DNA of 60,280 nt, filler included, from Jimgerdemannia flammicorona (taxonomy: Eukaryota), in assembly GCA_003990765.1 (NCBI GenBank). It is 2 parts of 2 records of this genome, joined end to end, with 100 filler letters (N's around TTAATTAATTAA, not from the genome) between each part and the next. Parts side by side here need not be neighbours in the genome. Positions count along the whole stretch, not along the records: positions 1 to 30,106 come from RBNJ01000454.1; 1 more part is not named here. The stretch is one strand, 5' to 3'. The notes below the pieces were generated by a model. It was given only the letters and a program-made list of their open reading frames with translations. It made no database searches and was not told where the DNA came from. This document shows, piece after piece, positions 352 through 60,280 of the stretch. A program made the position numbers and the translations under genes. How positions within the stretch are numbered: position 1 is the first letter of the stretch; each line of letters starts with the position of its first letter.

Positions 352-2745
352 CCCCATTCCTTAGTCCATTCCATCCTATCAGAATTATCCTTGCACCTGA
401 CATCCTGCAAGAGAAAGAGATTGGCCTCCAATCCCTTCAACCAAGTAAAAATGTTCCTGCGTCTAACCATGCCCCTTAGCCCATTCACATTCAAAGAAAA
501 AATGTTGGTTGTACTGTTCATAATGAAATATGGTTTGTTCTCAATCAATCCCTACTGCTCCATGCCCATCTCCTCCTGTGCTATGTCCAGATTATGTTCA
601 GCCCTCACCTCCACCTCTTCAGCCCTCTGAGCCTCCAGTTCAGCCAATATCTCATTCATCTCCTCATCAGCCTTCTCCTCAAACTCCTCTCTGTACTCGA
701 TGCAAGCCTCCTGCCAGAGCTGCAACCCATGACGCCTGTTCCAACAGTACTCAGCCTTCTCTCCAGCAACAACCACCAACTCTGCCTCCCTCTCCTTGTC
801 CACCTCATACCCTTCCTCCTCCAGATACACCACAAGAATTTCCACCTTCAGCGCTATCACCACTCCTTCCTCCTGCAAAATTCTTGCCCAGTGCTCATCA
901 CCCATCCCACGCAGGTCCACCTCCCCCAGCTCTTCTGCTGCCAGGTTATTCATCATCTGGCACATCCAAAGTAGGTTCCCCACCTCCTTCCCACCAGGGG
1001 TCGCTGGCCTCCCTCCATCCAGCATCGTGGTGTCAGCTTCAGCACTTGTGTCCTCATCCCACACCTCTGGGACATCCACCAGTTCCTCCTCCCCGGCCAC
1101 CACTACTTGGTCCCCATCCATTACCTCCGGAATGCTGAATTTCACCTACTGGGTCCCCAGCATCGTCACGTCCTCCCCAGACTTGTGCCTGGAAGCTGGG
1201 CTATGCCTGATAAGAGGGAAAGGGGTGGGGGAGTTCTCCCAGACTTCATCCCAAACCTCCAAGGTGCCATCCACATATGGGTCACTAATCTTCACCTCAT
1301 TTGCCTTCCCTGTCTTTGTCTCATCGTTCCCACTCCTCTCACCAGCCCAGACACTTGCTCCGGCCCCTTCTGCACCTGTCTTCATGATCGCATCCTTCTG
1401 TAGTCCACCCCCCAGTTTAGCCAGCTGATCCTTCTGCCTCTTCCACCCCTGAGCCCTCTCCCACTGTACCTTGTCTACTCGAATCCTCTTTCCATCCACT
1501 ACCTCCAGCTGCATCGACTCCTTGAAAGTCTTTTAGGCTTTATCTCGCTATTCCACAGCCCCATCCAGCTCCTCCAGTGCTTTCAATAAATCCTCCTCCT
1601 CTTCTTCACTTCCTTTCACCCATGTCACTTTGCACAGGAATGCTCCCCAAACCATCACTGAAGGCCAGTCCCTTGTCTTCCCAGTAGCCTCTTTCCTGGC
1701 CAGCTGAATCCTCACATCCATGTCCCCAGTCCTGAGTGTGGTCCCTTCCCAGACCTTGAATCTGATATCCACCACCTCTCCATACTCCACCATAACATCC
1801 TCCACTCTCTTCCTCATCTCCATCACCGTCACCATGGGAACTCCTTTCACCAGCAGTTGGACCACCCTCGGATCCCATTTCAAACACCTCGCCATCGGCA
1901 CACATACCTCCCCAACCACCAGCCCAACCTTCAGTACCTCCTCCAGCAGTTCAATCTCCTCAAAACCCACCTCTACCCCCTCCAGCCCCTTCAGAAACTT
2001 CACCAAGGCCGCTCCTGCCACCTGCTTAGCAATAAGCCCCAACACCATTTTCGCCATCACCGCTAAGCCCCAGAAGTACAGCATGACTGTGAATGCTGAG
2101 ATTGACTTCTTGAGTAACGGAGCTACTGCCAGTCCCATTACACCATCCACCAGGTCCCCGGGCCTCATGCCCTTCCCACCACTCAGCTCACCATCAGCAG
2201 TCCCATCTAGATTTTTTTCCAGATTGCCCATTACACCCCCATCAACAGTCCCCACCCCAGCTGCTACCCCCCCAGCTCCACCCCTATGGCCCTCCAGAGA
2301 GGAATCCCCAAGAGGTTGCTGCCTGGTAGCTTTCACCAGTACCTTCCCCCCTCTCAGCCAGCTCTCCAGTCCAGCTCCCTGCTGACCCCCCTTCACCTTC
2401 TCCACAAAGCTCACCCTGCCAGACTCTTGACCTCCAGCTCCTCCCCCTCCTCCACTGTGGCCTCCCACCAGTAGGCCCCTCATACTTCCCCCCAAGCCGG
2501 GGCCTCTCCCCACTTGCTGCCATTCAAATGCTCCAGGGCCACCCTGCCCAGTATGCACCTCCAGATGCTCATTGGTCGCCATGATACTAGTTGCTTTTCT
2601 CCAGAAACTGTGTTGAAAGTGTTGCCAAAAGATTGTGTAACCTGAATGTTACTGGAGAAAGATGCTGCTGTCTTATTATCTCTTAGATTACTTGCATAGA
2701 ATTGATTGTGAGTGAACTTGACTGAGGGGACTGTATTATACATAT
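352..2745 (-). mobile_element. Tx1/L1-like LINE, 5' part (5'UTR, ORF1, start of ORF2)
   Basis: ORF2 starts at ATG 521 with the APE endonuclease motif FSLNVNGLR...FLLQDVR...W. The upstream ORF1 occupies one frame. ORF2 is cut by the transposon at 351. The 5' boundary is approximate. Confidence 0.85.
552..2582 (-). pseudogene. LINE ORF1 (gag-like), ~677 codons with three in-frame stops
   Basis: Track ORFs 1548..2582, 1146..1514 and 552..1145 are in the same frame, broken by TAG (1548-1550), TAA (1533-1535) and TAG (1146-1148). An RRM-like ORF1 segment reads YGEVVDIRFKVWEGTTLRTGD. Confidence 0.75.
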
Positions 2746-3249
2746 TGTCATGTAGTGGGTACTGAGTCCTTAAAATACATCAGATTCTCTTCAAGGTGTA
2801 TCTCTTAGACTAACTACAAGTTTATTATAAGCAAGTTCTTATTGGAGTGCCTTTCCAAGATCTTATAGTCCTCAAAATTCTTATCTTTAAACTGTCTTGT
2901 TATCTCTTAGATTGCTTGCATGGAATTGAGTATAAGTGAACTTGACTGACTTTATTTCAAAGGAAATAAGAGGAGTATTTATACAAAATATAATTTAATG
3001 ATTACCAAGTTATAAAGCTAAATATAAATTCCAATAACTAAATAAAATACTGGAATACAGAAAACTAGGGTTGTAAGTACAAATTCAAGTATCTGTACAA
3101 ATGGTTGCACAAGTTCAAGATGCCAGTAGATTTCAGTAATATAGAAAAAGGATACTAGAAGAATTTCTGAGTTATATAAGATCAGAATACCAGAAGAATA
3201 ACTGTTATACAGAAAAAGGATGCTGGTAGAATTCAGTGTTATCAAGAAC

Positions 3250-4080
3250 TTAAAGCAGAATGTTCAGGACTATGGGGGCTTCATCCTTATCACTATCATC
3301 AAGGCTAGATGTCAGGGACAGGATCTCTTCAAAGGAGATGAGATCAGTGAATATTTCATCTATTTTGTATACATTGTATATCTCACATATAATGTACATA
3401 TCAATTAGCAGAATGATATCATTGTTGATGATGTCATCATGAGTGATATTATCTTGTTAGGTAGTGGTGAGAGCTCTCTAATCTATGATATTCTCTTCTA
3501 CAAAATAAGGAACAAATGTGGTATCTTGGAAAGCTGAGATCAATCCTTATACAAATTGATCTGAATTGTTCTAGAGGATGGGATTCCAGAACTCTTCTAC
3601 TTCATCACTATTGAGAATAATAGTGGACTGGGCTTCTGTGGCCACTATGGCCTCCAGTGCATTAGTAGGGCAGGCTGATAGTTCCTTGAAGTCTGAGATT
3701 CTAGTATACTCTAAGTTGGGGATTGACCATTGTACATGCCTGAAGATCTGATGAATCTTCTTAGCTATCCTTATTTCATACTCATCTATGGAAGTGGAAT
3801 CTTGTATTTCTTGAGAACTAGTCTGAGGGAATTTCCAGCAGAAGAGATTTTCTATTTCATATTTCTGCTATATTCAGAGACATTTGATAGCAATAGTGAT
3901 CCTTGTTTCCATTTTGCTACAGTATAGAATTTAATGATAAGAGTCACCAATATCTAGGTTAAGGCTAGGAGTTCTTCTTATATAGGTCCTCATAGCTCTT
4001 CTAATATCTAAGAACATCCTTTTCTGAACTAAGAGGCCTTAGTGGTTCCTAGACCTTAAGGTTTGGCAAGGGGCAGACAT
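3250..4080 (-). pseudogene. LTR-encoded ORF (solo LTR copy), decayed
   Basis: ATG at 4080 reads MSAPCQTLRSRNH*GLLVQKRMFLDIRRAMRTYIRRTPSLNLDIGDSYH*IL..M..YEIE. It is homologous to the ORFs in the other LTR copies and to the intact frame at 60037. Confidence 0.7.
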
Positions 4081-4175
4081 TTGTTTGTGGTAAGTCTTTT
4101 GAACTATTTCTGTAAGTCATGTTTGAGTTACTACTACTGTGGTTTCTTGATCCTTCTTTTATATTCCTTGAGATA

Positions 4176-4333
<158 letters not shown>

Positions 4334-4505
4334 ATATTCCTTGAGATATCTGTCTTATGGTCATGATGACTTACAGTTGGTCATTATTATTCATCTTATA
4401 GCCTGGGTGAGTCATGCCATATAAACTTCTTGTGCTCCAATCTGGTGACTTGTAAGAAAAGGCTGTCCCCTTTAATAATGTCATCATTCTGAGATAACCA
4501 TTATA

Positions 4506-6674: not shown

Positions 6675-8304
6675 TTTAATAATGATCTCAGAATAGTGAT
6701 ATCATTACAGAAGACAGTCTTTCCTTACAAGCTACTAGATCTGAGCACAAGAAGATCATACAGTATGACTCACCCAGGCTATAAGATAAGTAATGGTGAC
6801 TAATCATAAGTCATCACAACTACAAAATTGATATCTCAAGAAATATAAAAAAAGGACTAAGGAACCACAGCAGCAATAACTCAAATAAGACACACAAAAT
6901 TCCAAAATAGTTCAAAAACTCACAATAAAAAATACATGCTGCTCATCAAACCTGAAGGTCAAGGAACCACTAAGACTTCTCAGTTCAAGAAAGGATGTTC
7001 TAAGATATAACAAGAGCTATGAGGACCTACTTCTAGCCTCAATCTGGGTACTGGTAATCTATATCACTTTATCCTTAACTACTATGAAATAGAAACAAGA
7101 ATCACTATTACTACAGAATACCTCTAGATGTGGCAGGAATATGAAATAGGAAATATCATCTACTATAAATTCTCTCAGGCCAGTCTCTAAGAGATATAAG
7201 ATACTACTCCTATAAATGTATATAAATTGAGAATAGTTAAAAAGATCCATCAGATCTTCAGACATACATCTTAGTTGATCTCTAACTTTGAGTATATCAG
7301 TATCTCAGACTTTAAGAAATTATCAGCCTGCTACACAGATATACTAGAGACCATAGTAGTCACAGAAGCCCAATCCACCATCACTCTCAAAAGTGATAAA
7401 ATAGGAGAGTTCTGGAATCCCATCCTCGAGGACAATTCTGATCAATTCCTATAAGGATTAATCTTAGTATTCTAAGGCCCCAGTATCCAGGTTAGGCCTC
7501 CTCAATATCCTACCTTTGTCCCCTACTTTGTAGAGGAGAATCTTATAAATTGGAGAGTCTTTGATCTCCTTTCTCCTGCTACTCTTAAATGTGATGACAT
7601 CACCAGTGATGACATCACTGGCAATGATGTCATTTTGCTAATTGATGATATGCATAAAATATATAATATATATGAAATATATAAAATGAATAAAATATTC
7701 ACTGATCTCATTTCCTTCAAAGACATCCTATTCCCAACCTCTAGCCTTGATAGTGGTGAAGATGAAGTCCCCAGAATTTTGAATATTCTGCTCTGAGTTC
7801 TTTGTATAATTATTGAAATTCTTCTGGTATTCTAATCTTGTATAATTCAGAAATTATTCCAGCATTCTGAGCTTATATAACTAATTGAACAAATACTCAA
7901 ATTTGTACTTACAACTGAAGTTTTCTATATTCCAGTACCTTATTTATTTGGTTATTGAAATTTATATTTAGTTTTATAACTTAGTAATAATTGAAATATA
8001 TTTTATATAAATATCTCTTTCATTTCTTTTAAAATAAAGTCAGTTGCAAAGTGGTTAAGTATTCAAACACTCAAGTCTCCAACTACTTAAGAAGTATAGA
8101 AGTTCTAGTCCTCTACTCAATTCCAAGCAAGCAAATCCAGAAGACAATAGAACAATTTAAAGATAAGAAGATTGAGGACTATAAGACCTTGGGAAGGTAC
8201 TCCAATAGAACTTACTTATAAGAAACTTATAATTGGTTTAAGAGATATACCTTGAAGAGAATCTGATATACATACTTGGAGAACTTAACACCTACTACAT
8301 GACA
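6675..8304 (+). repeat. 5' LTR of gypsy family A
   Basis: Direct repeat of 12975-14600; ends TGACA, followed by a decayed PBS-like ACTTGATACTCATTGG. Confidence 0.9.
6932..7796 (+). pseudogene. LTR-encoded ORF (5' LTR copy), decayed
   Basis: Continuous frame ...MWQEYEIGNII...KIHQIFRH...GEFWNPILEDNSDQFL...PPQYPTFVPYFVEENLINW...EDEVPRILNILL*. Most stops are explicable by C>T or G>A changes. Confidence 0.7.
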
Positions 8305-8379
8305 ACTTGATACTCATTGGCTGATAATATTACTAGGATTACTCACTTTTAAGCTATAAAATAAACAACTACCACAATA

Positions 8380-11300
8380 ACTACCCTGACTACAAGAGTC
8401 ACTCCCTGCAAAAATTCAAGATAAGATAGAAATATATCCCCCTATATTCTATAGATTTACTACTGAAGAGTCAATCCTGATCTTCATTATAGACTTTGAA
8501 CAATTTGCTACCATATGAGCTCTTAGTATTGAAGCACAATTGGCCCTTCTACCTATCAGTCTCAGAGGAGCTATCAGAGATAAGTTCAATATAGCTACTA
8601 TTGCTGATACTAGTACAGTCAAACTCAACAATATAAAAAACTTCCTCAGAACCATATACTATACTGAAGAGATCATACAAGCTCTCAAATATTAACTCAA
8701 TACTATCTGTCAGAGACTGAGTGAAGATTCCAACTTATTCTATACCCAAATATATTACTAGATTGTCTTGGCTAGCTATGATGATGCCCTCAAGGAATTT
8801 AATCTTCCTAAAAAGAGGCTACTATAAAATTGCCCTAGTAATCTAATCTACTCTAGCTGCTCTGACCCTTGATCAGAAAGTAGTCTTTCAAAGAGATATT
8901 GAACTACCATATACCCTACTAAATACTTAATAGAAAGAATAACTATTATTAAGGTGGAGCTACCAAAGCCAATTAGTATCATACTTATCATAGCTATTAA
9001 TAAACAATAATCCCCACCTACTCCCAAGATGACCAAAGCTGATCTAGTAGAGGAACTTGCCCAGCTGTTTACTAAGATGACTACACATCTTGGTAATATT
9101 GTTGGAGAAGTATGAAGTACCAACAAGAGACTAGTGCAGAAGTTTGCAATCACTATAGAGGAATACACCATCATATACTTCAAATGTGGAAAAGAAGACC
9201 ACTATGCAAGGAATTGTATGACCAAAACAAGATATAGAGCCCAACTAAGTGATACTATCAGAACTAGAGAATAAACCAATACTATAGTCATTGAGGAGAT
9301 TAGTGATACTGATGATGAAGAATACAATGAGGAGTCTGAATTCTACTCTGTTACTGAAGCTACCAGAACTCAGTCCAAGCTCTATGATATGAAGGGCAAC
9401 AGCAAGCCAGTTGGAAGACCAAAAAAGACCTCAACTATCATTATTCAAAGTAAGACCCAATCTGAGGAGATTGATCAAGATATGGAGTTAGATGAAGCTA
9501 CCTGCCAAATTATTGAAGACACTACTCCAGTCTCAGAAGAAAGTGAAAGCAAGAAAGAACAGAAGCTGCACAAGAGCAAGGTCCACCAGTATGATATTTA
9601 CAAGGACCTCAAGGAACAGAAGGTCAATGCTACTTTTGGACAACTAGCAGAAGTCTCTATCTTCAGACAGCAGTTAAGAGTAGAACTTGTAACCACTGTC
9701 AAGAACCGAGAATACAAGATCATAGAAGCTCACAATGTATAGGAAGATGAATAAGGAGACTTAGGTAAAAAATCTGAAGATCAGTATAAGACCTCAGCCT
9801 ATACTCAGTATCAGATTGAAGATTGTATCTTTGATGCTATCATTGATACTAGTGCTAGAGGATATCTCATGAGTAAGAAGAAAATTAACTGTCTAGACTG
9901 GGATATTGAAGAATCCAACAAAATAGTCCATTATCAAGATTGGAGGAGCTACTATCTCAGTAGATATAATTGTTACAAGTACCACCAACTATAATATTCT
10001 CATTGGTATCTAATGGCTTCAAAAGGCCAAGACTATTATAGACCTCAATGCCCAGAAAATACAGATCAACTATAGAGAAAGAAAAGTATGAGTCTCTATC
10101 AATGTTTACTAAGGAGTACTACCAATATAGAGAAAGGAGATAAAGAGAATACAGAAGTCTTTATGCACTTAGTATACAAGAACAAGAGAAAGGCAACCAA
10201 GCTCACTGATGTGCAGTAGTACAATAAGATCATTAATAGCTATACCCCTTAAGGAAGATGCCCCCATGGTGCTAGGATATACAGCTCTAAACACCTGAAT
10301 GACTGCTGGTTCTGTATCAGTGAAGTCAGAAATATCTGTCAATAAAGGTATGAATAAAAAGCTGCTGAAGCAAAAAAGAAAGCTGAAGAAGATGACCAGC
10401 CCCCAGAGCTATTCTCAGACTTTCATCAGATTGGTCTCACTTAAGATGCCAGTGAGAAATCAGTCTTCATCACATCTAATGCCACCTATATCTATCTACA
10501 AATACTATTTGGAATGTGCAATGCCCCAGTAAGTTCTCAGTAAATGATGAATAGAGTCTTCAGTAATGAAATTGGAAAATGGCTCTTTATCTATATTAAT
10601 AATGTAATCATCTTTAGCAATACCATATGGGGTTATTTCAATTACATACAGCTAGCTCTCAAGAAGTTCAAGGAGTATGGTCTCTACATAAAGCCCAAGA
10701 AGTGCAATTTTGTAGCTTAGGAAATTACCTATCTAGAACACATTATTAATCAGACTGGAATTTATACAGATACTATAAAGATTGAGGCTATTGCAGTATA
10801 CCCAAGACCCCAAACAACTACCAAAGTCTATGCCTTCCTTGGACTGGCCTCTTACTATAGAAGATTTATCAAAGGATATTCCAATATTGTATCATCTATC
10901 TATGAGCTACTGAAGAAAGAGATCAAATTCAAATAGACTAAAGAATATCTAGAAACCTTCAATGACCTCCAGACTAGGTTAACCTAAGCACTCATCCTTA
11001 GAAGACCAGATTGAAACCTAGAGTTCATCCTGCAGACAGATGCAAGTACTATAGGACTTAGAGCAGTACTAGCTCAGAAGAAAGATGGACATAAATATCT
11101 CATCTTCTATGCAAGTCAAGGTACCTATAAAGCAGAACAGAACTATGAGTTATACAAACTTGAATACTTAGCAGTAGTCTGAGCAGTAGATAAGTTCTAC
11201 TACAATCTAGCTAGGAAATACTTCACTATTCAAACAGACCATCCTGCTCTTGCCTGGCTATTTCACACTCTGAACCCCAAAGAAATATATACCAGATAGA

Positions 11301-12600
11301 TTTACAGACTGCAAGAGTATGACTGTATTGTTAAATACTGCTCAGAAAGAACTAATACCAATGCTGATGCACTTTCAAGATACTCCAAAATACCTCCATC
11401 AAGACTATTTAACATAAATAAGGAGCTATACTATAGATTAATCAGCTATCTTGGGCAATAGGAGATGCTCAACCACCTTGAACCCTGAACTATCACAATT
11501 ATCAACTAGACTTAAAAACAATTTGAACTAGACCACACCACACTCAGAAAAGGAGGAAAGCTCATTATATCCAAATATAAGAAGTATTAAGTAATAAAGG
11601 AAGTATATGAACAAGGATACCTAGGAGGAACCAACATATATGACAAGATAAGAAGAACTATATAGTGGCCTAAGATAGAAGAAGACCTGTGCCAATTTGT
11701 CAAAAAGTGTGACAAGTACCAAAAACAGAAACAAGAGCAGTAATATCAGATACCCAGGTCTTCAAGAATTGAGCCCATCTCCTTCTACTATATTGCAATT
11801 GATATAATTGAACCACTACCAGTAACTTTATCAGGAAACTACTATATTATAGTTATTGTAGATCTCTTTATCAAATAGATAGAAGCAGGTGCATTACAAG
11901 AAGCCAATGCTCTCTCTATTGCTGACTTCCTATACTGAGAAATCATCTGGTACTACAAGACACTATGACAAATTACTACAGACTGTAGCACAGAATTTGT
12001 CAACAGATTCTATAAGATAATATATCAGAAATACAATATTCAGCACATCAAGACTACTGTGTATCACTCTTAAGAAAATGGACAGATAGAAAGAACCAAT
12101 AAGACCCTCAAAAACATCCTGACTAAGATCTCAGATATATATGAGAATTGGGATAACTACCTCCCAACTGCCCTTCTGTCTTATAAGATATATAGTCACA
12201 AAGTACATACTTTACCTCAAGGGAACTGCTCTTTAAAGAAGAAGATTCTGATGAAACCTCAGTTACAAATCTAGATCTAATATAGCAATAGATTGACTCA
12301 GAAATCTGGAGAATGTACCAAATCAGAAAGAAGGTATAAGATTATATCATCAAGTCACAAACACTAATAAGAAAGAATGTGGAAAAATATCACAAAACCT
12401 TAGAATCTATTCAAATCAGAGAAAAAGTTCTACTATATTAAAATATACTAGAAGTCTCATAGTCATGAAAACTGGAGCCTAAATGGAAAGGACTCTTCTA
12501 TGTATAAGATGTTAAAAAAGCTATCTTCTGGCTTAGAAAACTCTTAGAGACTATACTGTCTACTACAGTATATAGAAACAGACTCAAGAAGTACTATAAA
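8380..12600 (+). pseudogene. gag-pol remnant of gypsy family A
   Basis: Zinc knuckle FKCGKEDHYARNC (~9180-9217), protease AIIDTSA (~9835), RT IYINNVII (from YIDD, ~10590), RNase H QTDAS (~11033), integrase ERTNKTLK (~12090). Many stops. Confidence 0.88.
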
Positions 12601-12974
12601 CTTATATAAGAGAAGAAAAACACAATGATTACCTATAAAGTTCTAGTCTATGAATCATAACAGTATGTCCTATAATCAGCAAGCAATCTGTCTAGACTAT
12701 TTTCTAAAGAATACAGTACTAGCAACTACTCATCTATGAGACTTTCAAAGCTAGAGGAGTTCAAACCATTAACTAATTAGTTAAGATCAAAATTAGGTCC
12801 TTGCTCTATATGAAGGAAGAAACTCTTTACTATCATACCAAAATCCATAAGAAAGATGCCAGCTTATAAATACCACTTTTCAACCCTCTGCCAGAGATTA
12901 TGGGATCAGCAAATTTTTCAGACTAGACCAATAAATAAGAATGTTTAAGAGAAAATCCTTATTCAGAAGGAAGA

Positions 12975-14600
12975 TATAAGAGTGATCTCAGAATAGTAAC
13001 ATCATCACAGAAGATAGTCTTTCATTATAAGCCACCAGATTAGAGTATAAGAAGATTATATGGTATGACTCACCCAGGTTACAAGATGGGCAATGATGAC
13101 CAACCATAAGTCATCATGACCACATGATAGATATCTCAAGGAATATAAAAGAAGGGCTAAGGAACTGCAGCAGTAGTAACTCAAACAAGACTCACAAAAT
13201 TCCAAAATAGTTCAAAGACTCACTATAAACAAATGTCTGCCATCTGCCAAACCTCAAGGTCAAGGAACTACAAAGGCTTCTTAGTTCAAGAAAGGATGTT
13301 CCAAGACATCAGAAGAGCCATGAGAACCCATACCAGAAGGACTCCTAGCCTCAATCTGAGTATTGGCAACCTTTATTACTTTATCCTCAACTGCTGTGAA
13401 ATAGAAACAAGGATCACTATCACTACTGAATGCCTCTGGATGTGACAGAAATACGAAATAGAAAACCTTCTCTGCTGGGAATTCCCTCAGATTAGATAAA
13501 GACATAAATCCTATAGATATATATAAATTGAGAGTAGTCAAAAAGATCCATCAGATTTTTAGGCATACACCTTAGTTGAACTATAACTTAGAGTATACCA
13601 TGGTCTCAGACTTCAAGGAATTGTCAGCTCACTATATAGATACACTAGAGGCTATGGTGGTCACAGAGTACAATCTACCATCACTCTCAAAAGAGATAAG
13701 ATGGGAGAGTTCTGGAATCTCATCTTAAAGAACAATCCTGATCAATTCTTGCAAGAATTAATCTCAATATTCTAAGACCCCAGTATCCAGGTTAGGCCTC
13801 CTCAAGATCCTACCTTTGTCTCTTACTTTATAGAGAAGAACCTCATAGATTGGAGAGCCCCTGATCTCCTTACTCCTGCTGCTTCTGAATTTGATAACAT
13901 CATCAGTGATGATGTTTCTAGTGATGACATCATCCCACTAATTGACAATATTCATGAAATATGCAATATATGAAAAATACAACAAATGGATGAAACATTT
14001 GCTAACCATATTTCCTTTAAAGATATCATGTCTCTGACCTCTAGTCTTAGTAGTGATGAAGATAAAGTCTTCAGGATTCTGAATATTCTACTCTGAATTC
14101 TTTGCATAACTGTTGAAATTCTTCTACCATTCTGATCTTATATAACTCAGAAATTATTCCAGAATTCAGATCTTGTACAACCAATTGTATAGACACTTAA
14201 ATTTGTACTTACAATCAAATTTTTCTGTATTGAAGTACCTCATATATTTAGTTATTAGAATTTATATTTAGTTTTATAATTTAACAACTATTGAATTATA
14301 TTTTGTATAAATACCCCTCTCATTTCTTTTGAAATAAAGTCAATAGCAAAGTGGCTAAGTATTTAAATACTCAAGTCTCCAACTATTCAAGAAGTATAGA
14401 AGTTCTAGTTCTCTACTAAATTCCAAGCAAGAAAATCCAGAAAACAATGGAACAGTTTAAAGATAAGAAGTTTAAGGACTATAAGACCTTAGAAAGGCAC
14501 TCTAATAGAACTTGCTTATAAGAAACTTATAGTTGGTCTAAGAGATACACCTTGAAGAGAATTGGATATATTTGGAGAACTTAGTGCCTACTATATGACA
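12975..14600 (+). repeat. 3' LTR of gypsy family A
   Basis: Direct repeat of the 5' LTR, with TATA-like TATAAAA at ~13144 and AATAAA at ~14333. Confidence 0.9.
13233..14096 (+). pseudogene. LTR-encoded ORF (3' LTR copy), ~290 codons, decayed
   Basis: Reads MSAICQTSRSRNYKGFLVQERMFQDIRRAM...LNLSIGNLYYFI...TTECLWM*QKYEIE...GEFWNLIL...IDWRAPDLL...ILNILL*. The stop is at the same position in all three family-A LTRs. Confidence 0.72.
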
Positions 14601-15812: not shown

Positions 15813-18800
15813 GATTAAGGAATACTTAAGAGAGTAGAGAGAAGAAGAGTATGAGCTATTTATTGTTAGCTTATGCACTTTTATACATATTGATAATATT
15901 TATAATAATAACATAGTCAAACTGCACCACTACATATTGAGTTGCTATAACTAAGATATTTCAATACTCTTGCTCAATAAGATATACTCAGAATATATAA
16001 ATAAAACTAAAATATAGTCAAACTAAGATATAACTAACTAGGTGCTATCTAGATAACTAAAAAAGATTGAAATTCTCTACTTATAAGTATGAAAATAGGT
16101 AAACAGAGTCATAAAAGATGTAAATCCAGAATAAAACTAGTAATATTAATAAGAGAGATATATATATATAAGATGTAGTAGAATACTTATAGTACTCTGA
16201 AAACTTCTTATTATTATTATTGCTATTGCTTACTATTTATTAATATATAGTTTGTATTGATTGACATAGAATTGCCCATTAGTATAAAGTTACCTATAAG
16301 TTCTATTTCTTTTATATATAAATCAAACTTGATCTTTAGAAGGGCTTTAGTTAACAAATCTGTTATCATATACTCTATTGGAGTATTTCTAGTTATATAG
16401 TACTTTTTTCAGATATTCCTATATAAAATAATACTATATATTGATGTGTTTCATCTTAGTATGATATATAGAGTTCATTGCCATAATAATTATTATGTTA
16501 GAGTAGCATAAAGTGTCATTCTTGAGAAAATTTCAACTTCTTTAATAATTCCTGAAGCTATATAGCTTCTTTTATTACTATAGATAATATATAATATTTC
16601 ACTTATATATATAGATAATATTGTTACCAGAGATTACTTATATGTTTGCTCTAAAATAACTCTGATTGTGCAGATTTTAAGAGGTATCTAGTTGTAGAGT
16701 ATTAATTGTTAAGATCTTTAGCCTAGTTTATATCATATATACTAAATAACTATATCATACTACTTCTCTTATTATTACCATCTCCTAAGTTGAGCATATA
16801 ATGTGCTATATCTTTAATATATCTGAAAATATACTTGATTGATATCTAATACAAATTGTCATAGTAGAATGAGTCCTGTGCCACTTTTTTAACTATATAT
16901 AATATATCAGGTCTTATCTCAAGCATAATATATATAAGAGATTTCACAGCTGACCAATAGGAGATTTTATTGAATTCCTTAAATATATCATTACTGAACT
17001 TCTTTAATCTTATAGATGTCTCTATAGAAGTTCTAACAGATTTGAATTCACTTATATTAAATTATTCAAGTATAGTTCAAATATATATATCTAACTTGTA
17101 ATAGATGTATAGCATATTTGTATCTATTATATGTAATTGATATTCCAAGAAGATAAGATATATTACTCATATCTATCATCTTGAATTCCTAGTATAGTAT
17201 CACCTTTATATTATTAATCTTGTTTATCATTCTGACCAAAATGATATCATCAATTCAAATTCCTAGATATATCATTTCTGAGAATATATATTAAGTATAT
17301 ATATATATATATAAATCAGCCTTGTAATGTTTAAATCTATAACCTAAGAATTTTTTCAGTTCCACAGTTTTCTCACTTATTTGATACTATAGAGATCTTT
17401 ATATAATTTGCATATAAGCTCATTTTGCTCATTGTTTTATAGTTTATATCCTTGCAATTAATGCACATATAGCTTTATATCTATATCATTATTTAAAAAG
17501 GTTGTCTTAATATCTATTTAGTGAATTTCATAGTCATATTTGACTCTGATCATAAGAAGTATTCTAAGCAAAGTAAGCTTGAATATTGAGGAAAAGGTCT
17601 TATCATAGTCTATACCATATCCTTATAAATATCTCTTTACTATAAATCAAGCCTTATACTATACTATATTATTATTACTATTATATTTGATTTTATATAC
17701 TCAGTAATATCCTAATATTTTATTTTTATTTTTTTTTTTATAGTTACTTGGACTTTGCTATTTATTACCAATCTATTTCATAAATTACATTATCCTCTCC
17801 TACTACCCAATACCCCTAGAGAGCCCCCCCCCTTATACTCTTATACTTGAAAACCATCTTGTCCCCCACTACTCCAACTTTTCCCTCACTCTGCCTACAG
17901 ATTTTCTCTACCAAATAGGACTGCCCATCACCCTGCAGACCCCATCTCAGCCACTAGCTTATTAAGTTGTCCTCCATCAACCCTTCTTACCTTGCAAACT
18001 ACTTTCTCAAACTTAAATACTTTTCTTTCTCAAAAACAAATAGCCAGTGACCTGCTAGTCCTACCTATACCACTAATACCCAACTCAAAGGCAGCTACTT
18101 CTTCCCCACCTCCCTCAGATCCTCCCATTGACCCTGCTCACCATCTCCCCTATGTATAGCATCTAATCTATTCCCAACTGCTAACCAGAATTCACCAAGT
18201 TTCTCACACTCCCACAGCCAATGTTCTGGTATCTGTACAAACCCCCCTTCCTGTCTCACATTATAACACTCCTCACAGTCAAAGTTCTCTCCCTCTACAA
18301 GATAGCCTGAGTGAAAGTTGAGCATAACATTCCTCTACAGAATGTATCACTAAACTACCTAGTACTTGGATGGCAACTACTATCTTATCTCTACACTCTA
18401 TACCCAGACTCCATTCTGGTCTCACTCTTCTCCAATTCCCACCATCTGCTAGCTGCTAGGCCAAACATCCTTTCCCATCCGCCTCTGGCACTCTACTCCA
18501 TCACTAATATCAAAGTCCAAAAGAAGGGTGCCCCTCAGTAATACTTAATCCCATCTCCACATTGCTGGGCCCCAAGGCACCTCTCCTTCATCCCTCTGTC
18601 AGTGAATTCTAATACAGTGAGCCACATTCACGACTCCCCACCAGAAACCCCACTAAGGACAATAGATCCCTGGTAGTTCCTCTCAGTGAGCACCTCATCT
18701 CCTAGACCTTCTTTATTAGTGGAACCCAGCTACCACTCTTTAATTCTACAGCTCTCTTCAACCACTATGCTCTTAGACAATACAATCTCTTTGGAAAGTC

Positions 18801-21800: not shown

Positions 21801-24424
21801 TATATCCAAGAAATATATATTTATCTGTCTTAGACTCAAATTTACCTTTATTGCTACCTTTATTTAGAATGTAAGCCTTACTTCTAAATATCAATAAGTA
21901 CAAGATATCAGGCTTAGATCTACTCTATAATTCCTCAGAAGTAAGATTATTATCATTTCTAGATTATTAATCTTTCTTAGATTATTGATTATTTCTGAAT
22001 TAATAAATACTAGATCTACTAGATCTACTAGAATTCTTGCTTAGAGCTCAAAAAATATTACAATTTCAGATATATACTGCTATATTATCTGCTTCAGCCC
22101 AGATAGAGTACAGTAAGTCAGTCATATTTATCATTATTCAAGCTATCTCTACTATTATTCAATTAAGGCATTCTGCTATACTGTTCTGTTCAGATATATA
22201 GAGTTATTATAGAGTGTTGGATATTATACTTCTTTAAGAAGTATCTAAAGACTTTGTTGATATATTTCTTTTTATTATCTGAGTATAGAGTCTATATCTT
22301 ATATTTCATTTTATTCTCTACAGTTGCCTTAAATTCTTGACATTTTTTGAATATCTCATTCTTTGCTATAAGAAAGTATATATAGACTTTGCAAGTATAA
22401 TTATTAATAAAAGTAATAAAATACTTCTTTCTGGAGTATGTTACTATTTATATAAGCTACAGATATCCATATATATCATGTCAAGAATACTGGCTGTTCA
22501 CTTTGTCTATTTCTGAAAAGATTGCCAGGAAGTCTTATTTACTATATATTTATTATAAAAGAAATTTAGAGATATATAGTTTAGTAATCCTCTCACTAAA
22601 CTACTTCTTATTATCTGCTACAAGCTTATCTTACTAATGTGTCATAAGCATTCATATCATATACTAGAGATTCTCTCTAGTTATAGCAGAATATATAGAT
22701 AATATATCACTTAGTATATTATCAATTATATATAGGTTTCTCTTTTTCAATATATATTTTAGCTTCTTATTATTCTTTAGATTAATTACTATTATACTAT
22801 TCATTTATATATTTACTTCTTTATCTCCTCAAGCCATTATTTAGCCTATTAAGAAAAAGTTCTTATCTATATCTAGAGTATACAGTATATCCATAAAGGT
22901 GTCTGAGAGTTTGTCAACTTTTCTATATAAATATATACTGATATTGCTCTTGTCTTGAGTATAGATAATATTATTGTCACCTAATTTAATAAGTATAGAG
23001 TGCTTGAACTTCTTATATATAGAGAATTACTTATAGTATATAGTAATATATTATATTGCACTGGAATTCATAAGTCAGATTTTTTTACTATATATATAAG
23101 CACTTGACATATAGCTTATATTAATACTAATACTTATATCAATATTTTTTATTAGAGTTAAAATTTTTTCTAAATTTACACCTATATCTTCCTTTGTATA
23201 TAAGTAGATTGCTATTTATATAAAGAACAGACTGCTATCACCTTTACTGCTTTTATTATTGTTATTGATATCTATGATATTTGTTTGTTTACATTACTAT
23301 TGGTCATCTTTTTCTTTCTTCTTATGATTGAAGTCTTGCTTGTAATATTTATACTTATTATGATAAAAGTATTTACTATTAAATTTGGCTCATTGACTAT
23401 CATACTGACTGTTATACTGCTGGTTTTGCCCTTGTCCTTTGTTTGGCTTATCTTTGCCTCATCTATATACTCTGTAGAATGCTTTCTCATCATCATTGTT
23501 ATTATTGCCACTCAGTCTTGATTTCTCATTTAAGAGGCTCATGATGATATACTTATAGTTCAATAGTTTGCCAGATTCACTCATAGCAGTAACAACTACA
23601 TTATATATCTCAGAAAGATCATATATAAGAGACAGAATCTTATCTTCATTCTTAATGAGGTCTATTAGTATAGATATAACAGAATTAACTTGATTTGTCA
23701 GATTGTCAATATAGTTGGCATAGTTCCAGATGCTCTTCTTAGACTTCATTCAAAGGTTGAACAGTTGTACTTTCAGATGGAATCTGATTGATGTGGATGC
23801 CTACAAATGATTGTATAAGATTTCTCAGACTTTATTCACTATCATAGTATTGATAATAAGTTTCATTTATATATCAAAGGGGTGAATATAATCTCTCTTA
23901 GTGCTTTATGATCTCTCATAGTATTGTATTCTATTATTTGCCCCTGTGGCTTTCAGTAATCCTCCAGACCACATTCTTCTAAGAGATTTTTCATATAGTA
24001 TATCTATATAACATAGTTCTTACTATCAAAGACAGAAATTGTCCTCTTTACCATTATTGGTACTACTGCCAGAATGATCATTGTCATGACTATTATATTA
24101 GGTGTGCTTATACTGCCAGTACCTGTTCTGGATCCTGTTCCACTTGTACTACTTGGCAGGCTCATGTTTGACATACCTTGTAAGTGTGATATCTTTATAT
24201 AGTATAGTAGCATATATGTTATAGGGGTGTCTTTGTCTTTGTTATCTGCTTTCACTAGCAGGGCTCATAACCTTTTGTTGTGGAATACTTGGAAGAGTGG
24301 ACAGAAGAAGAGCATGAGCTGTTTATTAATTGCTTATGCACTTTTACATATTGATGAATTTTACAATGAGGATGTAGTCAGGCTGTGCCACACATATCGA
24401 GTTGCTATAACAGATATTTCAACA
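15813..24424 (-). mobile_element. Decayed Ty1/copia LTR retrotransposon interrupted by a LINE
   Basis: ~150-bp LTRs at ~15813-15966 and 24276-24424 (TGTTG...CAACA). Copia-type PBS GGTTATGAGCCC lies on the minus strand next to 24276 and a PPT next to 15966. Gag FDSKNYVI (~24010) and RNase H KHINI (from KHIDI, ~16440) are present. Confidence 0.88.
17718..21490 (-). mobile_element. Tx1/L1-like LINE, 5'-truncated, near-complete decayed ORF2 (APE-RT-zinc finger)
   Basis: Poly(A) at 17718-17739, ORF2 start MASIMNTFSLNVN at 21317, WRNWQPIMLL (~19800), GAFADDM (~19295) and C-terminal CEEC...EHWLWEC (~18200-18280). Confidence 0.9.
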
Positions 24425-30106: not shown

Positions 30107-30206
30107 NNNNNNNNNNNNNNNNNNNNNNNNNNNNNNNNNNNNNNNNNNNNTTAATTAATTAANNNNNNNNNNNNNNNNNNNNNNNNNNNNNNNNNNNNNN
30201 NNNNNN
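30107..30206. other. Assembly gap with artificial linker TTAATTAATTAA
   Basis: Runs of N flank a 12-nt all-frame stop linker at 30151-30162. Confidence 0.97.
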
Positions 30207-33200
30207 CACCCGGACACGGCGAAAGCACTATTCAGCCTGGCTGACTTTTACTACAGTCAACACAGGTTTACCGATTCGGAGGCGTTGCATCAACGGGTTC
30301 TGGCGAACCGGGAGAAGGAGTACGGGCCTGAGCACCGAGAGACCGCGGTGTCACTGAACAGTCTAGCCATGCTTAATAAGAGGCAGGGCAAGTATAGCGA
30401 AGCCGAGGAACAGTACAAACGGGCGCTAGCAATTTGCGAGAAGGTATTAGGAAACGAACACCCGCAAATGGAAAGGACACTTAGCAATCTTGCCAACCTC
30501 TACGGCACTTTGAACAATTATAACGCGGCCGAGAAACTACAAAAACGGGCTATGGCGATCTCGGAGAAGGCATGGGGAATTGACCACCCGCATACTGCGA
30601 CGGCACTGAGCGGCTTGGCCGTGATTTATAAGAATCAGAGCAAGTACGATGAAGCGGAGATGCTGCAACAACGGGCGCTGGCAATTCGCAAGAAGATTTT
30701 GGGATTGGAGCACCCGGACACCGTGACGACTGTGAACGAACTGGCCCTGATCAAGCAGCTCGTCGAGACTAAGGATCTACAGATTCCTTTTCCAGTCAGC
30801 AGAAACCAGAGCGGACACGGTGCTCAGGCAGATACCGGGATGTCTCTCGAAAATCTGGCGGCAGCCGATACCAGGACGCCTCTCGAAAATCCGGCCGCAG
30901 CCGATACCAGGACGCCTCTCGAAAATCCGGCCGCAGCCGATACTGGGACATCTCTCGAAAATCCGGCCCCTGTCACTAGCACTCAGAGAGAGCACGGTGC
31001 CCAGGCAGATATCGGAACGACCCCAGCCAACATCGATGGGCACAGTGCTCAGGCGGATGTCGGGACGTCTCCAGAAAATTGGAACCGTGAGCTGCCAATC
31101 GCGAAAGAAAGCCGAGAATCAGACAACATGGATACCCTGACGTTTCAAGGAAATCGGGCCCCAGATAAGAACCAAGACCATTCGGGGAATATACCGAGAT
31201 CAGGCAACACAAATACCGAGGCATCGGCTGAAAAAGGTGGCCTGATTCTCCCCTACAACGTGGACGGCATGTTGAAATTGGAAGAGCTTGAGAGCAAGAC
31301 GGAGGTCGATGTTCAGAGTGCCACCAAAGGAGACGACCAAATTCTCCCGTACAACGTGGATGACGCGTTCGAACTGGAACAGGATGACACAATGGTGGCC
31401 AATACCGAGAGTACCACTGAAGGAGAAGGCCTGATTCACCCGTACTACGTGGATTATGTACTCCAAAAAGAAGAGCAGAAGAGCAACGAGGTCAATACCG
31501 AAAGTATTACCAAAGAAAAGGACCCGATTCTCTCGTATAATATGGACGGCATGATCGAATCGGAAGAGCTTGAGAACAAGACGGAGATCGATGCTCATAG
31601 TATCACCAAGGGAGACGACCCAATTCTCCCGTACAACGTGAATGACGCGTTCAACCTAGAAGAGGATGGCATAATGGAGGCAAATATCGAGAGTACCATT
31701 GAAGAAGAAGGCCCGTACTACGTGGATGGTGCACTCGAAGAAAAAGAGCAGAAGAGCAACGAAGGTAGCGCCGAAGGTATCACCGAAGAAGACCCGATTC
31801 TCCCGGACGAAGTGGACAAAGTGGACGAAGAGCTTGAGAGCAAGATGGAGGCCGATGTGCTCCCGTTCGTCGTGGGTGATACATTTGAAATGGAACAGGA
31901 AATCAAATTGGTGGATGCCGAGAGTGCCACTGAAGGACAAGGTCTGGTTTTCCCGCACAACGCGGAAGGTGTGCCCGAAATGGAGGCCAATAACGACATT
32001 ACCACCGTAGGAGAGAACCCGATTCTCCAGGACGACATGGGCAGAGCACATAAACTAAGTGTTGATACAAAAGAAGATGAATTCGAGTATGTATTTTTGA
32101 ATTTTGTATCAATTGTTCTTTTTCAAACATCGCTCCAATTCAAAATTTGTAATCTTCGGTCCCGCTCAGGAATGCCGAAACAGACTTCCACGACTGGCTG
32201 AATAAGCCGCTACCCGACAAGGAGAAAAAGGTCAAAAAGCTTGTGGAGATGCATCAGTTTGGCAATTGCATCAATAGCGTCGTTGAAAAGAAACAAATGA
32301 TCATGTTTATGCCAACCTATTTGCTAGATAAGTTCGGTTGGTACACGGACAAACTCGGCATCTGTTTGTACGTTCGTTGGCCATTAACTATAGACAAACT
32401 TCAATTGCTGAACGACATGATAAAGGAGAATAATACCATTACAATTTTCCATGGTGTCGAGCAACTCGTTGTCGTGGACGATACCACGGCTTCAGAAGGC
32501 GACAAGTCCTCGGATGACAACATCGACGAACCCTCGGATGGTACCAAAGACGAGGGCCAAAGCAATGACGAGAATCGCATGCCAATCAATCAGTCACAAA
32601 GATCTGAGAATGATCCAGCCGAATCATCACCCAAACACGAATCGAACGAAGGCGGGAGCCCTTTTTCCGGAGGTGGCGCGACTTCGGATCTTGGTAACCT
32701 TGGTGAAGGTTCTTCATTTCCGAGAATTGGAGCGGGAGTCGCGGGTCAGGCCTCAAACACCAGTGTCAACAATGGGGAAGGCGGAGATGATGTCGGGCTG
32801 TCAAGACCTGAGGAAATCGACTCTACCCAACCAATGAATGAGAATTGGAGACTATTGCGCTCCTTTTGCGAGTTCTTTTGCTGTTGTCCCAAGAATTCAC
32901 GACATGGACTTCATGTTCCATCGAGCGCGGGTGACAATCCGACCGCTCAATTCATCGAAACAATGAGAACCTCACTTCCGCCAATACTCTCGAACACCCC
33001 AAATGAAACTGTAATATTCTCGATTATGTCCCCCGATAGTTCAAACGAAAAAGCCGATGCTGCTGGGATACATGCTTCGACCGAGGAAAGTGATATACAT
33101 TCAAACAGTATGCAAAACATTATGAACCACAACACATCGAGCGCGGGTGACCAACCGATCGCTCAATACAACGAAAGAATGACAGCATCACTTACACCAA

Positions 33201-34288: not shown

Positions 34289-34318
34289 ATCAACACATAG
34301 TTGTCTGATCTTATATAT

Positions 34319-35525
34319 TGTAACGTGCCGGCTCAAATGGAGGCAAATTACAAGGTTGGGGGTTGATGTAGTTTGGCTTGAGCCCCCAGTTACTTTGTCA
34401 AAAAGCAACAAAATGTTCTAAGATTCCTGAGGTCCTTGGTGTTTAGTGGTATAATAGTCAAAGTTGGATTTCTGCGAGCAATTTCCTTATTGGGACAGTT
34501 CTCTGGGTGTAGCGGCGATTTGTGTGTGAATGGATTTCCTTCTTGGGTCAACTGGGAATGCCACAATTTTGTGAAGTGAGGCAATCTCCAAAAGTATGCG
34601 ATTTCTGGGTGTGGCAGTCTTGTGTAGCACGACGATCTTGATGCGTGACAGTCTGGCAATTTGGCGGTTCTCCTTATGCGATTTCTGCATGACGATCTTG
34701 GTACGACGATCTCTGTGTAGCGCGACGATCTCCAAAAGTATATGATTTCTGGCGGTAGCTCGATTTGGCTTACTGGGAATAAACGAATAACTCGGATGGA
34801 ATATGGCGGATAACTTAGAAGCGGCGGATGATGCGGATTCGGCTTCAACTGGGAATACTACTTGGACGATGCGAGTTCTTCCGAATCGGGCTTTTCTGGG
34901 AATACGATGGCATGGATTCTTCTGAATCGGCGGCTTCAACTGGGAAATGGCGGCGAAGTTCTTTCTTGAACCTAGGCAGCAAACTTCAGGCTTATCTGGC
35001 AAGCGAACCAAAACGTAGCGGACTTCTCTTGAAAACGGACTTGTTCTTTGTATCGGAAAGTGGACCAGAGTGGGAAAGGGGCAAAGCTCACAATCTCCTA
35101 GTAGTGGCTGTAGAGCAGGCGTTTCTCCTAAGTGTTGCAATCCAATTCCTTTAGGATCAAGTGGCTTTTGGCAGGTGTATCTCTCGAAGTGTAGTAGGCA
35201 GACTTGTCTTTTGCTTTGTATTTCAGAACTGAGGTTTATTCACTCTTATCTCTGGGGTATTTTATACATTGTGGTTGCTATCTTGGTTGCTATCTGGTTA
35301 ACTATAGAATGCTATTTATGGGGTGACATTCACTGTCAGAGTGACAGCCACTGTCAGGGTGACAGCCACTGTCAGGGTGATGGCCACTGTCAGGGTTTTT
35401 CCTTTCTTTAGCTATCTGGGTTATTTATACATTTTCTGCAGTAATGGTTGCTGGTTACTATGCTATGCTAATGTTCACATCACCTGGTTGGGTTTCGAGA
35501 TTGCTACGTTTTGTGGTTTGTCACA
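34319..35525 (-). repeat. 3' LTR of gypsy family B
   Basis: Near-identical to 43041-44269; contains internal 18-bp GACAGCCACTGTCAGGGT tandem repeats. Confidence 0.95.
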
Positions 35526-38500: not shown

Positions 38501-38916
38501 CAATTCTTCTCCAATGTTGGTGGAAGGCTTCACTGTCTCCTGGGTCGCAGAGGGGCCTTTCCTTTCTTCTGAGACCTTTTGCCATTTCCCAATAGGTTTA
38601 GTTCATAAACTTCCCTATGGGTTTGGTTGAGAAAAGGCACCAGATGTCCTATGATGGTTCCTTTCAGCAAGATGATGGTCTCCTAACTTTGGTTGGTTGC
38701 TCAGGAGTGTACTGGATTCATCTTGTCAGGGAATGTGTATCCCTCTATGTCCAGGTGTGGGATATCTTCCTTGGGTTCAAAGAAAAGGTTTCTGGGGTCA
38801 GGTGGTGCAAAGATTTCGAAGGTAGCTTGTTCTCCAGGCTCCAGGATGAGATTCTTGTGCAGTCTGACTGGTTGCTGGTATACTTATTGAGGAGCATTCT
38901 TCTTGAGGTGGTTGAC

Positions 38917-39345
38917 TTAAAGGAGATATACTTCCTTCTTGTCTGAGCTTCCGAATCCTTTGGCTTGCCTTGTTCCTTCAGTCAGTTCAGATACTTCCTG
39001 TAATTGTGGGGTCCTGACCTTTATGAAGACTGCTTGGGCAATCTTCTGTCCTCTAATAATTCGGTGCCATTCTGCACTACTGTTGTGTAAGATAACCTTG
39101 ATTTCGCCTGTATATCCTGGGTCAATGGTTCCTCCTTCTATGGTTATTCCTTGTCTGGTAAGTCCAGACCTTGAGGTCAATTGGATGTAAGCTCCTTGGG
39201 ATGGCTGCATGGCTAATCCAGTTCTGATCATGAAGGTTTTTCCAGGCTTGATAAATTCATCCTCCAGACTGTGAAGATCATATCCTATATCCTCTGGGTG
39301 GGCTTTGGTTAGGGGTTTGGCCTTGGGATGTAGCAGGGCATACTG
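38917..39345 (-). pseudogene. dUTPase domain within gypsy pol
   Basis: Motifs DIGYDLHS, SRSGL, GTIDPGYTGEI, KIAQAV and RQAKGFGSS. Confidence 0.92.
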
Positions 39346-42300: not shown

Positions 42301-43040
42301 TTCTGAATCTGGATTGTTTGCTGTTCAATGGAAAATTCCTCTGGCTGGTTCTCTGAGCTGAGCCTTGTAGATGGCAATTTTTCTTTCATCTGAGAGATTC
42401 CTCAGGGCTGTGATTCCTTCAATTCCATCAAGGAATTCTCTGGAGTCTTCCTCTAGATATCCTGCAAAGATTGGCAATGAGGTGGTCATTTTATTGTCAC
42501 TTTCTTCTGATTCTGGTTCAGGTTCAGATTTTGATTCTGATTCACTTTCTGAGCTATCACTAGAGATGGGGGTGCTTGGGTATCTTGAGGATAGTGTTCT
42601 GGACCTTAGACAAGGTGGAATAAGCCTAGGTATTCTTGTAGGAGCTACTTCTCACTCTGCAAGAGGTTGTGGTAAAGGTTCTATTGGGGAGATTGGTGGG
42701 ACTGATATGGGGTGTCTGGCTGTAAGATCTTGGGCTTGTGTAATAAGATCTTCTAGTTCTTGTACAAGTTCTTCAAAATCTCCAACAGGGCCACCTGTGT
42801 TGTCTAGTTGATCTGGTTGGGAATTTTGGGCTGTACTTCCTTCTGGTTGAGATCCTTCTGATGCTGGGTAGTTGGCAAGTCTTGATGTGATTACTTCTCT
42901 TCTTGTTCAAATGCTGGTGATGACTAGTTCTCTTGTAGTGGCAGAGATTAGTATTGTATCAAATGTATCCAGTTTGACTGTGAGTTCTTGTGAGCTGAAA
43001 AGTCACATCGATTTGAAATCTTCCCAGTTGAGCCCCCAAA

Positions 43041-47368: not shown

Positions 47369-47639
47369 CTTGGCAGGCTCATGTTTGATACATCTGATAA
47401 GTGTGATATTTTTCTTTGTATAGTATAGTATATATGTTAGAGAGGTGTCTTTGTCTTTATTATCCACTTTTGCTAGTGGGGCTTATGTGGAATACTTGGG
47501 AAGAGTGGAGAGAAAAAAGAGAGCTGCAGTTGTTTATTGATAGCTTACATGCTTTTATGTATATTGATGACGTTTATATGATAATGTAGTCAGACTGTGC
47601 CACTATATATCAAGTTGCTATAACTAAGATATTTCAACA
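47369..47639 (-). mobile_element. Copia fragment (leader plus LTR) of the same family as 15813-24424
   Basis: Aligns to ~24152-24424, from CTTGGCAGGCTCATGTTTGA to ATTTCAACA. Confidence 0.85.
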
Positions 47640-59820: not shown

Positions 59821-60280
59821 TGTGACGTCTACAATTGACCCTATCCAAATTCAGAGTACCCTGTGACCACAAGATCAGACGACATTATGGTGCGATAACT
59901 GGTGACCAGCCCAATCTGTCAAGTGATTTCACCAAAAGAAGACAAGATGACCCAAGCCAAAATGAAGACCACGTTATTTAAAGAACCCTACTCCGCCTCA
60001 AGGATCAGCACCAAAGAACCAAGTACCCACCACACAATGCCTCCTATTCGCCGAACCAACCAGACCTCCCGCCGCTCTACCCCTTTGCCTGGCCCAAAGA
60101 CCCTGATCTTTGAAGCTATCAAGAAGGCCATCTGGTGCCCAGATACTTCCGAACACTTGAACTTCTACACTGAAGACCTTGGACACTTCATCAACTACCG
60201 GTATATAATGACCCAACAGCTCAAAGACACTACCAAACGAATGACCCTCTGGCATGACTATGAAATTGGACACCGCCTTC
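59821..60280 (+). mobile_element. Start of a young LTR (family C), running off the window
   Basis: Abrupt switch from AT-rich decayed DNA to CpG-containing DNA beginning TGTGAC. TATA-like TATTTAAA at ~59975, followed by an ORF homologous to the family-A LTR ORF. Confidence 0.65.
60037..60280 (+). CDS. Intact N-terminus of the LTR-encoded protein (partial, open to window end)
   Basis: MPPIRRTNQTSRRSTPLPGPKTLIFEAIKKAIWCPDTSEHLNFYTEDLGHFINYRYIMTQQLKDTTKRMTLWHDYEIGHRL has no stop. It is absent from the ORF track because it is unterminated. Confidence 0.72.
   Translation, partial: MPPIRRTNQTSRRSTPLPGPKTLIFEAIKKAIWCPDTSEHLNFYTEDLGHFINYRYIMTQQLKDTTKRMTLWHDYEIGHRL

Follow-up and report, generated by a model that had tools for sequence, protein, structure and literature searches.

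Genes that lie inside the long terminal repeats (LTRs) of retroelements are known mainly from a few retroviruses. In mouse mammary tumor virus (MMTV), sag is a complete sense open reading frame (ORF) of about 320 codons in the U3 part of an LTR longer than 1.2 kb; it occurs twice per provirus and is retained in solo LTRs. As an accessory gene, it is dispensable for the gag-pol machinery, and Sag is a type II membrane glycoprotein. HIV nef and the foamy-virus bel/bet genes start in the internal region and only overlap the U3 of the 3' LTR, and Tat, Tax, and Tas are retroviral trans-activators. Plant LTR retrotransposons carry additional ORFs (aORFs), situated between one LTR and gag or pol. They have been reviewed as extra genes, sense and antisense, mostly of unknown function and conserved within lineages; that review assigns gag and pol to the internal region and uses neither the phrase "in the LTR" nor "within LTR" (PMC7264820). 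A fungal example is brtn of Botrytis cinerea, an extra gene that, by the title of its description, runs antisense in Boty-like Ty3/gypsy elements (Zhao et al., 2011, cited in PMC8365987 and PMC7264820). Here, we analyze a stretch of DNA from the fungus Jimgerdemannia flammicorona (assembly GCA_003990765.1), hereafter the window: 60,280 nucleotides (nt) made of parts of two records joined through 100 filler letters, in which positions 1 to 30,106 come from RBNJ01000454.1. We consider it likely that each LTR of a Ty3/gypsy lineage present in this window holds a complete sense gene of 250–340 codons, encoding a soluble protein of a previously undescribed family.

The window looks fungal, with AT-rich blocks of 26–36% GC adjoining blocks of 44–50% GC, and differences among its repeat copies are chiefly C>T and G>A, the type produced by repeat-induced point mutation (RIP). 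When the window was compared to itself by BLAST, 6677–8304 was found to be a direct repeat of 12977–14600 (80.7% identity over 1644 columns), and both repeats were matched on the minus strand by 2739–4183 together with 4334–4505, which make up a solo LTR. Pfam searches of the read-through frames between the two direct repeats gave, in order, zf-CCHC, RVP_2, RVT_1, RT_RNaseH, Integrase_H2C2, and rve. The 3' ends of the LTRs read ...ATGACA in all three copies, while their starts are TA or TT in the RIP-mutated copies, not TG. The tetranucleotide TTAT stands on both outer flanks of the full element, although 4 bp are a weak signature in AT-rich DNA. The repeat pair and the internal order gag, protease, reverse transcriptase, RNase H, and integrase mark this element (family A) as a true member of Ty3/gypsy; its LTRs measure 1.63 kb, and a solo LTR accompanies it (Table 1). 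The solo LTR carries, at 4183–4334 and read in the minus-strand sense, an insert of about 150 nt that ends in a poly(A) run of about 100 nt and has a duplication of about 17 nt (AGATATCTCAAGGAATAT) on either side. It looks like a retroposed fragment mobilized by a long interspersed element, or like an insertion of the short interspersed element type, placed just upstream of the TATA box of this LTR.

One reading frame is common to all three family-A LTRs, as had been proposed in the initial annotation of this DNA and as is now evident from translations, from a three-way DNA alignment, and from matches to an intact protein. The frame starts 256–258 nt into the LTR, ends about 500 nt before the LTR does, and runs on the same strand as gag-pol. 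The intact family-A protein is P0011, of 247 amino acids (aa), and in tBLASTn it aligned to the solo-LTR copy at 4017–3253 (E=7e-82, seven stops), to the 5' LTR copy at 7029–7784 (E=9e-78, six stops), and to the 3' LTR copy at 13296–14024 (E=4e-56, seven stops). Compared to P0011, the residue changes in the three copies are those that RIP would bring about: R>Y/C/H, A>T/V, P>S/L, E>K, D>N, Q>stop, and W>stop. The frame is protein-coding, and in family A the gene lies wholly inside bona fide LTRs. Gag is encoded internally, so the frame in the LTRs represents a gene additional to gag.

A second sequence, dissimilar in its DNA, led to further intact relatives. The 81 codons open at 60037–60279 (family B) retrieved P0001 (325 aa, 88% identical) and P0002, of which P0003–P0007 are further cluster mates. 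When P0001 was searched by phmmer against 1,835,955,588 representative sequences with a cut-off of E≤0.001, 10 proteins were returned. Leaving three B-type fragments and P0017 out of the count, these fall into six lineages with less than 50% identity between them (P0001, P0009/P0018, P0010, P0011/P0019, P0015/P0020, and P0016/P0021), and stand at 25–35% identity. P0017 was rejected as a family member: only its acidic tail matches, weakly (E=4e-4), and this was taken as low complexity. Full-length members measure 205–342 aa and have no stops. All members found are metagenome-type records, and none comes from the NCBI or UniRef gene sets. Most of the database contigs that bear relatives are 0.6–2.4 kb long, so short that the context of the gene is not visible.

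These proteins connect families A and B. P0001 matches the family-A 5' LTR at 7029–7502 (E=4e-9, residues 38–200) and the solo LTR at 3774–3595 (E=8e-6). P0009 matches both A (E=8.5e-40) and B (E=1.9e-13), as does P0010 (E=2e-33 and E=1.1e-13, respectively), and P0011 also matches B at 60157–60279 (E=2e-4). The 38-residue similarity between A and B that was first noticed is therefore real, and is part of a homology of about 200 residues that includes a second block, HQIFRH.P, absent from the initial annotation. The residues proposed to have stood in family A before RIP (N>D, Y>H, and I>M, together with an inferred C>R) were correct in all four cases, as P0011 reads VNLGTADPYHFILYRREMETRITIATECLQMWQEYEIG. 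The gene is homologous across family A, family B, and no fewer than four further lineages; those lineages have it intact, whereas it is RIP-decayed in the three A copies of this window. Scanning metagenome contigs with alignment A2 yielded one further locus, L001 (1535 nt); a scan of the same kind of contigs with P0001 and a scan of viral contigs yielded no match, and B-type DNA was not found in any of these scans. L001 contains a 33-nt direct repeat, 170–202 versus 1481–1513, with 82% identity and 1311 nt apart, which may represent a control motif repeated within that LTR.

At 59821, ahead of the family-B gene, the composition switches sharply from an AT-rich, RIP-decayed flank to unmutated, normal sequence, and the ATG follows 216 nt later, a distance close to that in family A, as the initial annotation had claimed. 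The frame is cut by the window end; loose contig ends in three sequencing runs continue it as in P0001, its full-length close relative. One possibility is that 59821 marks a stand-alone gene, of the host or domesticated, or the end of some other mobile element, and that the family-A LTR holds a captured copy. The short span in the window leaves any partner repeat, primer-binding site (PBS), and polypurine tract (PPT) of family B out of view, and the short contigs of the relatives lend this explanation the same latitude. We consider it improbable nonetheless. Family B begins with TG exactly where the RIP-decayed flank ends, and in a contig from run X6 the matching begins at the very same base, after a different 8-nt flank (AGGGCAGA) that is purine-rich, like a PPT. 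The order of TATA box, 5' untranslated region, and ATG, and their offsets, are as in the proven family-A LTR. Diverged B-type copies are numerous, with 81 contig pieces in one soil run, and RIP-like changes (R>C, R>H, R>W) are found in the database copies P0002, P0007, P0012, and P0014. The absence of members from the NCBI and UniRef gene sets also speaks against a host gene. Family B is very probably an LTR with a resident gene, as in family A.

Alignments of the lineages show a common start, MP(P/A)xR, and common blocks, namely LN..DLGHF, W.EYEIGH, KK.HQIFRHAP, DNPDQ.LQ, and FEGPPI. The DNA around the gene behaves differently. Compared with 200 shuffles, transition-tolerant local alignments of the non-coding LTR parts of A, B, and L001 had z values between -1.6 and 2.8. 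Aligning the upstream parts with MAFFT was not informative, and tblastx of L001 against the window matched in the ORF only. Because the protein blocks have been kept across lineages while the non-coding LTR DNA no longer aligns, this is a real and conserved gene. Among the 19 listed variants of the B coding part in the relatives' contigs, 11 are synonymous and eight are non-synonymous, compared to 32% synonymous expected for transitions (p=0.018, rough omega ~0.34); this count is partial, as 28 more variants in the stretch are not included and the contigs come from several organisms. The earlier argument for selection, from a protein conserved where its DNA is not, is upheld by LTR DNA that cannot be aligned and by listed variants that lean synonymous. 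The LTR-resident accessory gene is real and selected, and it defines a new protein family.

It could still be argued that the ORF is a relic, a fragment of a host gene transduced once into an ancestral LTR and drifting there with no role in the element. Foreign sequence is indeed acquired by LTR retrotransposons, and the protein is without known function, expression, or fold. However, six lineages as distant as those above have all kept long frames (205–342 codons) with the same start and the same blocks, within LTR DNA that has diverged beyond alignment and with variants that lean synonymous, and no host homologue was found among the 1.84 billion representatives. We therefore give very little credence to a relic. 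Least probable of all is that the frame is the upstream part of a split or extended Gag: it does lie on the sense strand upstream of gag, and would be the first cistron of the genomic RNA under one of the layouts discussed below, but it ends about 500 nt before the LTR end with stops in all frames thereafter, a separate gag, zinc knuckle included, is present in the internal region, no Pfam gag family was matched by any of nine members, and the 3' LTR and the solo LTR hold the same gene far from any gag.

The initial annotation did not recognize the protein family, and our wider searches agree with it. No Pfam family was matched at E≤1 by P0001, P0005, or P0007, and Pfam on nine members gave one unrelated weak match, in one of the nine. 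NCBIfam matched none of six members, and the best hit of a profile search against the PDB had E=0.5. At the level of the fold, and with low-confidence query models, the best Foldseek match in the PDB had E=1.1, the best wide VIA-align match had Z=4.0, and the best match among the BFVD viral models had E=0.2. The ESM Atlas gave no usable match for P0001; for P0010 (residues 1–210) top scores were 0.90–0.91, with fewer than 170 shared features and in unrelated clusters. In the better of two AlphaFold models, helices occupy residues 20–155, with block values of the predicted local distance difference test (pLDDT) of 57–88, and the C-terminal half falls below 50. No membrane segment was found in six members (maximum 19-residue hydropathy 0.46–1.07). 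The tail has an isoelectric point of about 4.05, is proline-rich, and holds 11–30 acidic versus 0–8 basic residues; in several lineages it ends in an acidic run followed by P-L/W/M-hydrophobic-LNF. As modeled, the protein would consist of a helical domain of about 200 aa and a disordered, acidic tail, with a short conserved motif at the end of the tail.

The helical N-terminal domain, the acidic proline-rich tail, and the short acidic-hydrophobic end motif suggest a soluble adaptor or regulator acting in trans, which might for example activate transcription from the LTR or recruit a host factor. This assignment, drawn from predicted features, is speculative, and we would call it doubtful rather than likely. 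An anti-silencing role, proposed in the initial annotation, found no support: all three family-A copies bearing the gene are heavily RIP-mutated.

The sequence around the ORF suggests how it might be expressed. A TATA(A/T)AAAG box stands upstream of the start codon at 89 nt in A, 62 nt in B, and 80 nt in L001. In the family-A LTRs the stop codon is followed, after 210–240 nt, by a second TATA-like box and an AATAAA, whose distances to the LTR end are about 290 and 265 nt, respectively. In the model we propose, every LTR, solo LTRs included, would be a self-contained expression unit, in which the conserved TATA box 60–90 nt upstream of the conserved ATG would drive an mRNA of about 1.1–1.2 kb. 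Termination at the poly(A) signal of the same LTR would keep this mRNA within one LTR. Two layouts are conceivable. The ORF could possibly lie in a long U3, like MMTV sag, and the genomic RNA would then start at the second TATA-like box, some 290 nt short of the LTR end. The other layout, in which the upstream TATA box would be the sole promoter and the ORF a leader cistron in a very long R, is possible but tentative. Among contigs with relatives, nine of 15 distinct sizes are 1.0–1.6 kb, which fits collapsed LTR repeats or such transcripts equally.

Several observations weigh against the interpretation of an LTR-resident regulatory gene, in whole or in part. LTR residency is established for family A only, family B being represented by its 5' 460 nt. 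The transcription start, the poly(A) site, and the limits of U3, R, and U5 are placed by motifs of a kind that arise by chance in AT-rich, RIP-mutated DNA, and a search for a self-priming complement to the PBS, of the Tf1 type, gave only chance-level matches. None of the sequencing runs listed for the stretch is recorded as RNA. The contigs of four runs aligned to the family-B stretch, which hold small shares of it and one of which (X2) is only guessed to be RNA, showed no starts, ends, or joints on it. The structure models are weak (mean pLDDT 54.7 and 44.1, the second being poor), which makes the fold and the functional reading tentative. RIP mutation of all three family-A copies lends no support to protection against RIP by the gene product, and the partial nature of the variant count has been indicated above.

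With these reservations, we consider it conceivable, if somewhat short of probable, that non-retroviral LTR retrotransposons have here their first family of accessory genes resident in LTRs, with each LTR acting as a complete promoter–ORF–terminator unit for a trans-acting regulator that serves the element. If so, solo LTRs generated by recombination would go on expressing the regulator across the genome. The product would be diffusible, its dose would rise with the number of LTRs, and it would persist after gag-pol has died. Annotation pipelines mask LTRs, which are regarded as non-coding control regions, and a gene inside an LTR would therefore be systematically missed, which fits the origin of all members found here in metagenome-type records rather than in gene sets. 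A conserved protein encoded in LTRs would change the annotation of such elements, and would recast solo LTRs as possible live genes and not scars. The dating of insertions by LTR divergence would also be affected, because part of the LTR is under selection at the protein level. Finally, the system would offer a tractable fungal setting in which to study the extra functions that retroelements gain toward retrovirus-like complexity.

Table 1. Coordinates of the family-A element, its LTR gene, the family-B sequence, and candidate transcription signals in the window.
Feature	Position	Strand	Details
Family-A 5' LTR	6677..8304	+	May begin at 6675; 1.63 kb; ends ...ATGACA; repeat of 12977–14600
Family-A internal region	8305..12976	+	4.67 kb; gag (zinc knuckle), protease, reverse transcriptase, RNase H, integrase; RIP-decayed
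Family-A 3' LTR	12977..14600	+	Purine-rich tract AGAAGGAAGA before it
Family-A solo LTR	2739..4505	-	Interrupted at 4183–4334 by poly(A)-tailed insert
Decayed LTR ORF, 5' LTR copy	6932..7796	+	Start codon now ATA; 1-nt and 11-nt deletions shift frame near N-terminus
Decayed LTR ORF, 3' LTR copy	13233..14096	+	288 codons; 11-nt and 1-nt deletions shift frame of middle part
Decayed LTR ORF, solo-LTR copy	3250..4080	-	Start at 4080
TATAAAAG, candidate promoter element	13144..13151	+	89 nt upstream of ORF start; in 3/3 A copies; putative function
Second TATA-like box TATAAATA	14306..14313	+	Candidate genomic-RNA promoter; in 3/3 A copies
AATAAA	14333..14338	+	Candidate shared poly(A) signal; in 3/3 A copies
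Family-B LTR-like terminus	59821..60280	+	Starts TGTGACG; not RIP-mutated; 460 nt, cut by window end
TATTTAAAG, TATA-type box	59975..59983	+	62 nt upstream of B ORF start; putative function
Family-B LTR ORF	60037..60280	+	First 81 codons, open to window end

The window holds a second, younger Ty3/gypsy element at 34319–44269 on the minus strand, with 1.2-kb LTRs that are 94% identical. It encodes a dUTPase domain at 38917–39453 (Pfam E=9e-26), upstream of reverse transcriptase, RNase H, and integrase. Its LTRs (34319–35525 and 43041–44269) contain long frames with internal repeats. This element was considered as another carrier of the LTR gene and rejected: in its LTRs the best tBLASTn match of two members searched at E≤10 had E=4.4, five more members gave none at E≤1e-3, and Pfam gave no match. 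A short dispersed repeat, 75–81% identical, occurs at 15819–15964, 24152–24424, 47369–47881, 42908–43139, and 34306–34417, and two of its copies abut the LTRs of this second element.

Other genes in the window encode an NB-ARC/TPR protein, a Ras GTPase, and a DUF6345 protein. The NB-ARC/TPR gene, which is NLR-like, lies at 49846–52476 on the minus strand and has a repetitive C-terminal tail with tandem copies at 50074–50444. Parts of it resemble, on the other strand, the TPR ORF at 30207–30747. The TPR-repeat ORF at 30285–32201 has tandem repeats at 31241–31966, and a run of N (approximately 30162–30206) lies just upstream of it. At the start of the window, 1–2650 is a GC-rich block with a GC skew of -0.41 and long overlapping proline- and serine-rich frames on both strands; Pfam on two of these frames gave no match, and the block may be low-complexity sequence or a decayed repeat.

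Searches of full-text articles turned up no description of a sense ORF within a fungal LTR, and the only such phrase concerns MMTV. Fig. S1 of PMC8365987, on additional ORFs of Botrytis elements, could bear on this negative, and a prior description in a repeat library such as Repbase or Dfam is possible. As far as its description goes, brtn resembles the gene presented here: both are extra genes carried by fungal Ty3/gypsy elements, and neither has a known function. By title, however, brtn is antisense, whereas the LTR ORF is sense. The aORFs of plants are likewise extra genes beside gag and pol that are conserved within lineages. In contrast to them, the ORF described here is inside the LTR (13233–14096 in 12977–14600, and likewise in the other two copies), and no sequence relation between the two was found.

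By analogy, the LTR gene may be compared to the retroviral trans-activators, which are element-encoded proteins acting in trans and using LTR sequence, and its acidic tail suggests an activator-like role. It differs from nef and bel/bet in lying wholly inside the LTR, and a Foldseek search of its product against viral models gave no match (best E=0.2). Unlike MMTV sag, the gene resides in a fungal host and in a Ty3/gypsy element that lacks env, and its location in U3 is only a candidate; the proteins have no family match in Pfam, no membrane segment by hydropathy, and no relation to Sag in sequence or architecture. Even so, MMTV sag is the nearest analogy and shares with the gene presented in this study a similar size, a position wholly inside a long LTR, and an accessory nature.

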